From sequence record PQ511150.1: a DNA stretch of 64,000 nt. One strand, 5' to 3'. Positions within the stretch are counted from its first letter, which is position 1; every line of letters starts with the position of its first letter. Shown here in pieces: positions 19,202 to 21,507 of the stretch. The notes under the pieces were generated by a model. That model was not told the origin of the DNA, did no database searches, and was given only the letters and a program-made list of their open reading frames with translations. The position numbers and the translations under genes are program-made. Source of the DNA: Escherichia phage NHEP29.

Positions 19202-19656
19202 AAAGAGTCTCTTAATAGGTTTAACACATCAATAAATTCAGCTTCAGTTAGTATTGTATCATCTTTTGTTAGACCACTAGCCATGCTGTGCTTCAAAATT
19301 TTTCCTTTAGAGGCTTGTAAGGCATCACGAAACCCCTTGTTTTGGATCGCTGCTTCAAAATATGCATTTGTATATAATTCTTTCCACGCTTCAGAGTATC
19401 TTGAAAATGGAACTCCTAACCAGAAGAGAGTCCCATGGTCCTGAGCTCTTGCATAAGACCTTCCAGCTTGTTGGGCGGCAAGCCCGGATAACCCAAATAT
19501 ACGTTTTTGTTGTTCAACATTTCTCACCTTACATCCTTGGAGAAATCCTTCAAGACCTCCGAATTGAATACCATCCATAACGAAAGGCCACCGGGCAAAA
19601 TTACTTAATGCACATGACGGCCACTTAAAATTGCTTCTTATTTCTAATTCAGACAT
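19198..19656 (-). CDS. NADAR / YbiA-like (DUF1768) domain protein
   Basis: Motif CALSNFARWPFVMDGIQFGGLEGFLQGCK parallels E. coli YbiA GDFSNFAAWPIKVDGKTWPTSEHYFQAQKF; first ATG at 19656 (track start 19665 is GTG). Confidence 0.6.
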   Translation of the reverse strand: MSELEIRSNFKWPSCALSNFARWPFVMDGIQFGGLEGFLQGCKVRNVEQQKRIFGLSGLAAQQAGRSYARAQDHGTLFWLGVPFSRYSEAWKELYTNAYFEAAIQNKGFRDALQASKGKILKHSMASGLTKDDTILTEAEFIDVLNLLRDSL

Positions 19657-19867
19657 CTTTAACACTTATAATTTCAATATCAGCCCAATGACCGTATCCA
19701 GGTATACGGTCTTCGATAGATAAATTTCCATCATTTTTAGGCATTTTAATTGACGTAACGTATGGTTCTAGACGGTTTTCTGCATAATACGGAAAAACGT
19801 CTGTTACACGATAAGTAACTTCGATCATTTCTGTACCCAACAATTTCTGAATTAATTTCTTTAACAT
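19649..19867 (-). CDS. hypothetical protein (72 aa)
   Basis: ORF in gene-dense 30.x region on the gene strand. Confidence 0.4.
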   Translation of the reverse strand: MLKKLIQKLLGTEMIEVTYRVTDVFPYYAENRLEPYVTSIKMPKNDGNLSIEDRIPGYGHWADIEIISVKDV

Positions 19868-19868
19868 A

Positions 19869-20063
19869 TTATCCTCGCTTTAAACATTTGATTACAGACA
19901 GTTCACCACCCATGCGAACGTCTTCAGTTCCATCGACCCATAGGACGGTGTAGGCTTCTTTAATAGTAGCATTACCTAATTTAAAAGCAGGTAAAACCTT
20001 TGAAATCATACCAGGAATACCTATACCTTTTAACTGAACGGTTTGTGATAAGAATAGTTGCAT
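19869..20063 (-). CDS. hypothetical protein (64 aa)
   Basis: ORF in 30.x region. Confidence 0.4.
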   Translation of the reverse strand: MQLFLSQTVQLKGIGIPGMISKVLPAFKLGNATIKEAYTVLWVDGTEDVRMGGELSVIKCLKRG

Positions 20064-20350
20064 TAGAACCTCATCTGAAAGCCGTGTGATTTAACATTAC
20101 CGCCATAAATGTCGGAGGTATTGACTTCACGCGCGGCGCTAGGGTCGATGTTAATATCATGGTTGAGCTTAGTGATTGCTAAGGTATCACGACCGTTAAC
20201 AGTACGGAATTCTACCGGGCACACAACATCAGCATAAGCCTTAATGGATTCACGAGTGGGCTGTTTGTCGGCAGGAACATCTTTACCCGCTTTAGAGAAA
20301 ACAACTTCACAGAAATTTTTACGAGTATCAAAATAAGTGGTCATAAACAT
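20063..20350 (-). CDS. hypothetical protein (95 aa)
   Basis: Start refined to MFMTTYF after RBS GAGGAAA; UUCG hairpin immediately upstream. Confidence 0.45.
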   Translation of the reverse strand: MFMTTYFDTRKNFCEVVFSKAGKDVPADKQPTRESIKAYADVVCPVEFRTVNGRDTLAITKLNHDINIDPSAAREVNTSDIYGGNVKSHGFQMRF

Positions 20351-20362
20351 AATATTTTCCTC

Positions 20363-20384
20363 AAAGGAGGCCGAAGCCTCCTTT
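20363..20384 (-). terminator. UUCG hairpin in 30.x region
   Basis: AAAGGAGGC-cgaa-GCCTCCTTT. Confidence 0.55.
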
Positions 20385-20390
20385 TTAAGA

Positions 20391-20756
20391 TTAGATATCA
20401 AATTCGTTAAGAACTACATCAAAGATTGCTTCGAGATGTTCAGGTTTAGCTCGGTTACTCAGGATATGACGAATCCAAGTTTTAACCAGAAGTTTACGAT
20501 TAACACCATTCCAGCAAGGATGAGTACCTAAATCACGCTGACGGAAATCATCATCTAATGCAATTTTAAAATTTGAACCTTCCATCGTGATTGAAACCGT
20601 GATACCATTTTCAAATCGCATATAAACGTAATTAGGAGTCATGCACTGTTCGATTTCACAAACTGTACCGTTTTCGTGTTTCCATAAGCAAATAACTTCA
20701 GAAGAACCAGCAATACCGTTAGAAACATATTTACGTTCGAAGTTGATGTAGTTCAT
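20391..20756 (-). CDS. hypothetical protein (121 aa)
   Basis: ORF preceded by an early promoter with palindrome; contains CMTP motif shared with neighbouring ORF. Confidence 0.5.
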   Translation of the reverse strand: MNYINFERKYVSNGIAGSSEVICLWKHENGTVCEIEQCMTPNYVYMRFENGITVSITMEGSNFKIALDDDFRQRDLGTHPCWNGVNRKLLVKTWIRHILSNRAKPEHLEAIFDVVLNEFDI

Positions 20757-20796
20757 TTTATTCTCCAGATGTTTAAGTTGTTTGTTGGTACAGGAC

Positions 20797-20826
20797 TATA
20801 ATAACATAACCTGTACCAAAGTAAAC
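20797..20826 (-). promoter_or_regulatory. early promoter with palindrome around -10
   Basis: Minus strand GTTTAC + 17 + TATTAT; -10 sits between GGTACAGG and CCTGTACC. Confidence 0.6.
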
Positions 20827-20830
20827 TGTT

Positions 20831-21199
20831 TTATGCAACTTTAATCCAATTGTCTAAATTTAAAACATCTTTGGCTTTCATTTTTTCGATCAGGTTATCT
20901 GCTGTAATGCGTCCATTTTGATACCATGTAACATCTTCAGAGTAACCAGTTTCTTCGTCAACATATGTTTCTGAACGAATTTTACCGGTAATAATAGTTT
21001 TTAATTCGTATGTGTCACCTGTGAAAAAGTTTGCTAACACAATTTTCCAAGAGAAATCATCAGAAGGACCTTCAGGGGTCATACAACCTACGAACTCAAA
21101 TTGCTCTTTGTATAACATCCACTGGAATTCTTTAATTTCGATAGCTTTATAACCATCGTGGTCTTTACATTTGATGTATGAGTTCAGATTGATTTTCAT
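20831..21199 (-). CDS. hypothetical protein (122 aa)
   Basis: ORF preceded by an early promoter; contains GCMTPEGP motif. Confidence 0.5.
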   Translation of the reverse strand: MKINLNSYIKCKDHDGYKAIEIKEFQWMLYKEQFEFVGCMTPEGPSDDFSWKIVLANFFTGDTYELKTIITGKIRSETYVDEETGYSEDVTWYQNGRITADNLIEKMKAKDVLNLDNWIKVA

Positions 21200-21238
21200 T
21201 TTGTTCTCCGGTTGTTTTATTGATTAGGTGGTACAAGT

Positions 21239-21269
21239 CTATAGTAACACATCCTACAGGAGAGTAAAC
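21239..21269 (-). promoter_or_regulatory. early promoter
   Basis: Minus strand GTTTAC + 17 + TACTAT upstream of the 122-aa gene. Confidence 0.6.
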
Positions 21270-21304
21270 ATCTTTTTAAACTTTTTTGCCCTAAACGCAC
21301 AAAA

Positions 21305-21322
21305 GGGAGACCGAAGTCTCCC
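21305..21322 (-). terminator. UUCG hairpin after the small basic protein gene
   Basis: GGGAGAC-cgaa-GTCTCCC; identical to hairpin at 36511. Confidence 0.6.
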
Positions 21323-21327
21323 TAAAA

Positions 21328-21507
21328 TTATGCAACAACCTTTCCAAAACGAGAAGCATCATCTCGAAGAACTGCACGTGCTCTGCGCATGATCTTCTCA
21401 ACGGTTTGATTAATACGAGAGTTCGACCCACGCTTGTATCCAGCGCGTTTAGAGGTACCATCAACTTTCTTTTCAACTGCTTTCTTTGCTTTAGCTTGTT
21501 TTGCCAT
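21328..21507 (-). CDS. small highly basic protein (59 aa), not in ORF track
   Basis: Hand-translated MAKQAKAKKAVEKKVDGTSKRAGYKRGSNSRINQTVEKIMRRARAVLRDDASRFGKVVA; followed by UUCG hairpin; overlapping track ORF 21291..21476 is in another frame. Confidence 0.45.
   Translation of the reverse strand: MAKQAKAKKAVEKKVDGTSKRAGYKRGSNSRINQTVEKIMRRARAVLRDDASRFGKVVA

Follow-up and report, generated by a model that had tools for sequence, protein, structure and literature searches.

The 64,000-nt stretch of Escherichia phage NHEP29 analyzed here (PQ511150.1; the window) carries a block of small minus-strand genes at positions 19649–21507, between a NADAR-family gene and rIII. We conclude that this block is very likely the Mosigvirus copy of the phage T4 genes 30.4–30.9, a set of six unrelated small early genes that are dispensable on laboratory E. 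coli. The block itself is already known: T4 30.4–30.9 are long-described “conserved hypothetical” genes, and the copy in the window is real but ordinary. A 3.2-kb query around the block matched 964 phage records, the best of which were Mosigvirus coliphages with ~95% identity (KMB38, PTK, Bas47 AlbertHofmann, phiC120, and PhAPEC2). The window phage is a Mosigvirus, that is, an RB69/PhAPEC2-like relative of T4. The annotations of the best matches and of T4 share one minus-strand layout, consisting of DNA ligase (30), 30.1–30.9, rIII, 31, 31.1 and cd.

The block holds six genes of 72, 64, 95, 121, 122 and 59 aa. In T4 (NC_000866, 128758–130540), 30.3 and rIII likewise enclose these six genes, ordered and oriented alike; they belong to the same Pfam/PHROG families, and five of them show 50–96% identity. 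An earlier reading made from the letters alone (the sequence-only reading) had placed the block between the NADAR gene and rIII, which is indeed the position of the T4 30.x accessory block between 30.3 (AdfN) and rIII. It had also counted seven small open reading frames (ORFs) of 59–122 aa. The tight minus-strand run of small ORFs was found as described, but the count is six: the annotations of near-identical phages and T4 likewise have six genes in the block, and the intergenic gaps of 19649–21507 contain no additional ORF of 30 aa or more on the minus strand.

Two of the genes were identified by Pfam. The 30.7 orthologue (20391–20756, 121 aa) matches PF06919 (Phage_T4_Gp30_7) with 172.9 bits against a gathering cut-off of 27, covering the model from 1 to 118 of 118, and also phrog_1582 (E = 5.2e-65). 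The 30.8 orthologue (20831–21199, 122 aa) matches PF06019 (Phage_30_8) with 145.5 bits (gathering cut-off 25) and phrog_1507, likewise over its full length. The remaining four are identified by full-length PHROG profile matches and by their syntenic position between 30.3 and rIII. These are 30.4 (19649–19867, 72 aa; phrog_2042, E = 2.3e-34), 30.5 (19869–20063, 64 aa; phrog_1690, E = 9.2e-28), 30.6 (20063–20350, 95 aa; phrog_2153, E = 1.5e-48, residues 1–95 of 95) and 30.9 (21328–21507, 59 aa; phrog_1427, E = 2.4e-31). All six are on the minus strand, and in PhAPEC2 the 30.4 counterpart is labeled as similar to gp30.4. Identity to T4 as measured by tblastn is 94.5% for 30.3, 50% for 30.4, 67% over the full length for 30.5, 83% over 95 of 95 residues for 30.6, 93% for 30.7, 36% for 30.8, 96% for 30.9 and 87% for rIII. 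Compared with T4, the window thus carries a strongly divergent allele of 30.8 and a moderately divergent one of 30.4.

Codon comparison with T4 gave ratios of non-synonymous to synonymous substitution rates (dN/dS) of 0.34, 0.16, 0.07, 0.06, 0.23 and 0.24 for 30.4 to 30.9, respectively. Purifying selection acts on all six genes, and because the ratios are low we regard all of them as real, including the one of 59 aa. The start of 30.6 needs correction: the listed ORF has 112 aa from a TTG at 20401, whereas the gene really encodes 95 aa from the ATG at 20350, as in T4, with a Shine-Dalgarno sequence (GAGG) 8 nt upstream. The 59-aa gene had been picked out earlier as a Lys/Arg-rich protein missed by the ORF track. 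This was correct; it is 30.9, with 10 K and 8 R among its 59 residues (31% K+R) and a net charge of about +13, and it was missed because it is one residue short of the 60-aa cut-off. Homologues of 30.9 fall into 65 clusters. All clusters with an organism name are from T4-like phages, one of them filed under Shigella flexneri, and no Pfam domain was found among the 65, bar one stray PF00122 flag.

Two further observations concern 30.9. Its synonymous divergence from T4 (dS) is unusually low, 0.22 against 0.7–2.7 in the five neighboring genes, which points to either a recent exchange of the rIII-30.9 segment or a constraint at the nucleotide level. Moreover, several GenBank records label a coding sequence in the 30.x-rIII stretch “1,4-alpha-glucan (glycogen) branching enzyme, GH-13-type,” and UniRef puts the branching-enzyme name on a 68-aa 30.9 homologue from Klebsiella phage PMBT63. 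On 30.9 homologues this label is clearly an error that has spread from one annotation to the next.

Early promoters and UUCG hairpins had been said to separate the ORFs, and we found two hairpins of the cUUCGg type and two promoters of the T4 early type (GTTTAC-N17-TAYWAT), all on the minus strand. One hairpin with a 9-bp stem lies between 30.7 and 30.6 (20363–20384; AAAGGAGGC-UUCG-GCCUCCUUU) and contains GGAG. The other, which is terminator-like, has an 8-bp stem followed by UUUGUG and is located directly after the 30.9 stop codon (21304–21323). The PhAPEC2 annotation has a “putative terminator” between 30.9 and 30.8 in the same place, directly after the 30.9 stop. Hairpins of the cUUCGg type are said to have been found exceptionally stable, and common in T4 intercistronic regions, by Tuerk et al. 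in 1988. The promoters are located upstream of 30.8 (21241–21269; GTTTAC-N17-TACTAT) and upstream of 30.7 (20798–20826; GTTTAC-N17-TATTAT), the latter overlapping the inverted repeat GGTACAGG...CCTGTACC. A GGAG Shine-Dalgarno sequence precedes both 30.7 and 30.8, in the same place as the site of T4 30.7. The published early-promoter consensus for T4/PST is TTTACW-N17-TAYWAT (PMC4122927); in the 30.7 promoter the spacer is 16 nt when counted from TTTACT and 17 nt from GTTTAC, the published value being N17.

Composites of a stem-loop and an early promoter, termed PeSL (promoter-early stem-loop), flank exchangeable accessory genes in the variable regions of T4-like phages (PMC4122927). In the described PeSL cassettes the stem-loop is followed by a T4/PST early promoter between small accessory genes (Arbiol et al., 2010; Comeau et al., 2014, PMC4122927), and the hairpin at 21304–21323 together with the promoter at 21269–21241 fits such a composite in the intergenic space. 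As in those cassettes, the composite adjoins an allele replacement, that of 30.8. The likeness is limited to one junction: both parts are present only at the 30.9/30.8 junction of the window, whereas at the 30.8/30.7 junction an inverted repeat overlaps the promoter, and at the 30.7/30.6 junction there is only a hairpin.

The divergent 30.8 allele sits exactly between the two early promoters, and the flanking genes 30.7 and 30.9 are 93 and 96% identical to T4. This position suggests a cassette exchange. Swapping of alleles between PeSL-type cassettes is our proposed explanation for an identity of 36% in 30.8 next to 93–96% in its neighbors, and recombinational exchange may have taken place at the PeSL-type sites described here. 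In a block otherwise 97–100% identical to that of Bas47 AlbertHofmann, the 30.4 allele is only 75% identical, although all the genes around it reach 96–100%; alleles thus appear to have been swapped locally here as well. PhAPEC2 has no 30.5, and in more distant genera only 30.9 and usually 30.8 are kept beside rIII, followed by unrelated small genes. The block is mosaic in this sense. The term “hyperplastic,” used in the sequence-only reading, is only moderately apt, as the gene order is the same as in T4.

What is known of the function of these genes comes from T4. A HIDEN-SEQ transposon study reports T4 30.1–30.9 as non-essential on K-12 (bioRxiv 10.1101/2025.11.20.689424). T4 30.5 activates the NLR-like defense protein bNACHT11 and co-purifies with the host polyphosphate kinase, Ppk (bioRxiv 10.1101/2024.12.17.629029). 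RegB cleaves the 30.7 mRNA of T4, an early transcript, at its Shine-Dalgarno GGAG (PMC9409239). T4 gp30.3 is AdfN, a NADAR enzyme that reverses DarT1 ADP-ribosylation and counters DarTG1 (PMC11257639). The 64-aa protein of the window is the orthologue of T4 30.5, in the same position and alike over its full length, and both Ppk binding and bNACHT11 recognition would be expected to extend to this allele. The AdfN homologue is the immediate neighbor of the block, outside 19649–21507, and is an enzyme of defined activity, unlike the six small proteins. The expectation that such regions of T4-like phages are rich in host-takeover and anti-defense functions is thus borne out to the extent that such functions are documented here, for T4 30.5 (Ppk and bNACHT11). 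Non-essentiality, binding of 30.5 to Ppk and RegB cleavage of the 30.7 mRNA were shown by others in T4, while the gene identities, selection, signals, mosaicism and lack of homology between 30.7 and 30.8 were established in the present analysis; we infer that the T4 properties carry over to this phage. By analogy with 30.5, the products of 30.4, 30.6, 30.7, 30.8 and 30.9 may also act through binding of host factors.

Taken together, we propose the following explanation of the block. Transcription would enter from the rIII side and, in addition, start at the two T4-type early promoters before 30.8 and 30.7. The cUUCGg hairpins after 30.9 and 30.7 would act as partial terminators or 3′ stabilizers, and the GGAG Shine-Dalgarno sequences would make 30.7 and 30.8 targets of RegB, by which early expression would be shut off. 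The six products would, like T4 30.5, be small proteins that bind host proteins and either modulate the metabolism of the host or are recognized by its immunity. The block as a whole would evolve through allele replacement and indels between promoter/stem-loop cassettes of the PeSL type.

Several observations weigh against this explanation. A generic consensus scan found fewer sigma-70-like sites than shuffled sequences (7 vs 11.2) and no canonical intrinsic terminator. As the generic scan was not above the shuffles, the promoter and terminator roles follow from the T4-specific consensus and the literature and not from enrichment. Five of the six proteins are without demonstrated function in any phage. 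No functional Pfam, NCBIfam or PDB match was obtained for any of the six; Pfam and PHROGs returned only families of “unknown function” or noise, and a literature search under the gp30.x names gave nothing beyond the results for 30.3, 30.5 and 30.7 and those on non-essentiality. Finally, the predicted structures of 30.7 and 30.8 resemble each other in that both have a beta-sheet followed by a C-terminal helix in ~121 aa, and in each the sequence CMTP occupies a hairpin turn at a matching offset.

This last resemblance would fit an ancient tandem duplication that has passed beyond sequence recognition, CMTP being the relic of a functional turn. The sequence-only reading had noted the motif in the two adjacent proteins and taken it as a hint of such a duplication. 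CMTP is indeed present in both, at residues 38–41 of 30.7 and 39–42 of 30.8. The genes adjoin and encode proteins of nearly equal length (121 and 122 aa), and both models put the motif in a turn that joins two strands, with a beta-rich N-terminal part ahead of a C-terminal helix. Moreover, in composition-preserving shuffles of the two proteins a shared 4-mer within 2 residues of the same offset was seen in 0.5% of trials, a figure that applies to one pre-chosen pair. A shared 4-mer anywhere was seen in 12%, however, and by a rough estimate, not a count, adjacent gene pairs in the window number many tens, so that a coincidence of this kind is unsurprising. BLASTP of 30.7 against 30.8 aligned nothing beyond the motif itself (4/4, E = 0.2). 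When the family profiles were compared with hhalign, the probability was 0.15% (E = 0.39), and the aligned stretch was the N-terminus and not the motif. PF06919 and PF06019 are separate Pfam families and gave no cross-matches for the two proteins.

The duplication is contradicted also by the conservation of the motif within each family, for which we collected 19 homologues of 30.7 and 38 of 30.8. The stretch C-x-T-P-[ED]-G-x-S-D-D-F shows little or no variation in the 30.8 family (27 members, the window protein among them). Most members of the 30.7 family have Y in place of the C, giving YMTP, and distant members have YWED, YWET or FWED, which argues that CMTP is not ancestral there. The AlphaFold models also differ in layout, with seven short strands and two helices in 30.7 (predicted local distance difference test score, pLDDT, 80) and long beta-hairpins, a single helix and two short strands at the termini in 30.8 (pLDDT 93). 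Three fold searches were made in all. The two models differed in their lists of neighbors and much in the number of weak neighbors, and one of the three, a Foldseek search of the 30.8 model against viral predicted structures (BFVD), gave just three matches with E ≤ 0.001, all of them close sequence relatives (47–79% identity). We therefore consider common descent of the two genes very improbable; 30.7 and 30.8 appear not to be paralogues, and the CMTP they have in common appears to be a coincidence.

The block could also be read as a dedicated anti-defense island, in which each small protein inhibits a specific immune system and the alleles turn over fast for this reason. The neighboring 30.3 (AdfN) does neutralize DarTG1, the genes are expressed early, the T4 study found all six dispensable on the defense-poor K-12, and alleles have been strongly replaced at 30.8 and 30.4. 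On the other hand, inhibitor activity is known for none of 30.4–30.9, the family searches gave no supporting match, and the one characterized product, 30.5, is a trigger of immunity and a binder of a metabolic kinase and not a known inhibitor. Furthermore, the 83–96% identity of 30.6, 30.7 and 30.9 to T4 suits a housekeeping-like interaction with the host better than an arms race. On balance we find an island of this kind unlikely, and prefer to describe the block as the Mosigvirus copy of a set of small early genes whose products would mostly bind host proteins.

Outside the block, the gap between 30.9 and rIII (21508–21877, 370 nt) holds no credible ORF but contains a conserved structured RNA of 151 nt on the minus strand (21624–21774). 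It is located in the 3′ untranslated region of rIII and the 5′ untranslated region of 30.9. A stem, P0, closes a four-way junction without linker nucleotides. The first arm consists of P1, an invariant internal loop (AAGUGCAU / CUCAAG) and P2; the second is the hairpin P3, whose loop kisses the loop of P2 to form a pseudoknot; in the third, P4 encloses two hairpins, one of the GNRA type and one whose 22-nt loop is conserved. The kissing helix of 6 bp, UGAUGG/CCAUCA, covaries to CGAUGG/CCAUCG, CUAUGG/CCAUAG and CAAUGA/UCAUUG, and is 100% paired with three covarying pairs.

RNAalifold predicted 39 pairs from 19 distinct copies, with compensatory changes in 16. The full model comprises 50 pairs. 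Over 34 distinct copies these are 97.9% paired, compared with 29–41% in controls with slid partners, and 25 pairs have compensatory changes, compared with 3–8 in the slid controls; the observed values of pairing and covariation were reached by 0 of 500 shuffles. A single divergent member from IMG/VR contributes further covariation in P1 and P6. From its conserved G-U pairs, the RNA is assigned to the minus strand, in the same direction as the genes. The minimum-free-energy z-score of the whole gap is just -1.1, so that folding of a single sequence would miss the element. Two candidate features were discarded. The -10-like boxes just upstream of the RNA core proved to form the 5′ side of stem P0, which closes the junction, and inspection revealed no covariation for a switch in which the core motif CCUCAAGG would pair with a downstream CCUUGAGG hairpin.

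Conservation of the gap might instead stem from a seventh, protein-coding gene, for which the minus-strand ORFs of 67 aa (21652–21855, TTG start) and 45 aa (21657–21794) would be the candidates. Some GenBank records mark “hypothetical proteins” over this stretch, and UniProt formerly listed a 97-aa, N-terminally extended T4 30.9. This has next to no probability in our view. Indels of 1, 2 and 7 nt among the copies break any reading frame, substitutions fall as compensatory pairs in stems and not at third codon positions, the conserved G-U pairs suit an RNA on the minus strand, and the whole segment is missing from T4 and PhAPEC2.

The core of the structured RNA is 93–95% identical in T4-like phages of Klebsiella, Enterobacter, Salmonella, and Edwardsiella and 80–85% identical in phages of Serratia, Kosakonia, and Erwinia. 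In phages with this 80–95% identity in the core, the flanking rIII protein is just 62–76% identical (66–76% in those of Klebsiella, Enterobacter and Edwardsiella); the RNA is more conserved than the flanking genes. Among the phage loci compared, its position is always between rIII and 30.9. A covariance model of the RNA (R1) found exactly one copy in the window (21631–21768, 165 bits) and detected the RNA in 20 of 47 rIII loci from IMG/VR. The core is missing from T4, T6 and PhAPEC2 and is present in Bas47 AlbertHofmann, which is of the same species as PhAPEC2. In T4 (locus piece 4042–4285) it is cleanly deleted, and in PhAPEC2 (locus piece 3820–4082) it is replaced by ~50 unrelated bases. The spacer between 30.9 and rIII is 370 nt in the window and 244 nt in T4 because T4 is without the core. 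The RNA occurs only in T4-like phages. It is present in about 40% of them, the 34 distinct copies coming from at least 10 genera, and has been lost repeatedly (T4, T6, PhAPEC2).

Searches for known RNAs and for copies elsewhere were negative. Rfam, searched in E-value mode with 6 kb and with the gap alone, gave no family over 21624–21774, ribozyme and riboswitch models included; its single match in the gap was a chance hit to mir-1275 (17 bits; gathering score 71). With ARAGORN the gap RNA gave neither a tRNA nor a tmRNA, and a relationship to the T4 stable RNAs C and D (rnaC, rnaD) was rejected as the covariance model had no match in the T4 tRNA region. BLAST of the gap RNA against 5,426 E. 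coli genomes gave no match. Bacterial copies suggested by 35 exact matches to an 18-mer (17 specified bases) were attributed to chance: by our own arithmetic ~1.2e12 positions against 4^17 words would yield some 70 matches, and the covariance model matches none of the 35. None of the phage records inspected carries an annotation of the RNA, and the main text of a large computational survey of viral structured RNAs leaves T4-like phages unmentioned (PMC10690425). We give it roughly an even chance that the gap RNA is an undescribed class of phage-specific structured RNA.

The complexity and conservation of the element are typical of ribozymes, riboswitches or protein-scaffold RNAs. Four-way junctions are found in the natural hairpin ribozyme and kissing L2-L3 loops in the purine riboswitches. 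The gap RNA shares with such RNAs its four linker-free helices, a 6-bp loop-loop helix, invariant internal loops and a GNRA hairpin, but it has no Rfam match, and the likeness is architectural only. A consensus scan found no promoter-like site in the gap between 30.9 and rIII, and the RNA is therefore probably part of the rIII and/or the 30.9 transcript. Our leading guess is that it could be a cis-acting leader, either controlling the very basic and highly conserved 30.9 protein encoded immediately downstream or serving as its binding site; T4 keeps 30.9 without the RNA.

A separate motif lies between the RNA core and 30.9 (21550–21571, minus strand; CCCCTTGAGGGCTTGCGCAGGC), with the pattern GU.CC..U.GAGGGCUUG.G. 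It does not vary across the seven genera aligned, even in T4, which has no core, and it contains GCTT resembling a MotA box. This motif may function as a middle promoter or as a site of processing.

On its other side the block adjoins 30.3 (NADAR, AdfN; 19198–19656/19665), which matches PF08010 with 225.9 bits. The match reaches residue 153 of 155 and the window copy appears full-length, unlike the RB69 copy, which is C-terminally truncated. The next gene, a 30.2 homologue of 271 aa (18386–19201), shows a weak HAD-like likeness (PF13419, E = 0.02, below the cut-off), and its N-terminus is DxDG, typical of HAD phosphatases.

For the block, the gain lies in corrections: the genes number six, the start codon of 30.6 is the ATG at 20350, the 59-aa 30.9 is a real gene, and the branching-enzyme label belongs to a 30.9 homologue. 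With 30.3 (AdfN) and 30.5 (Ppk binding) as precedents, the block is a reasonable hunting ground for host-interaction factors. The structured RNA next to it could be of greater consequence and is directly testable, as Bas47 AlbertHofmann and PhAPEC2 form a natural pair within one species, one with the RNA and one without. If it does represent a new class of functional RNA, this class lies in the best-studied phage family and would have been overlooked because T4 itself lacks it.

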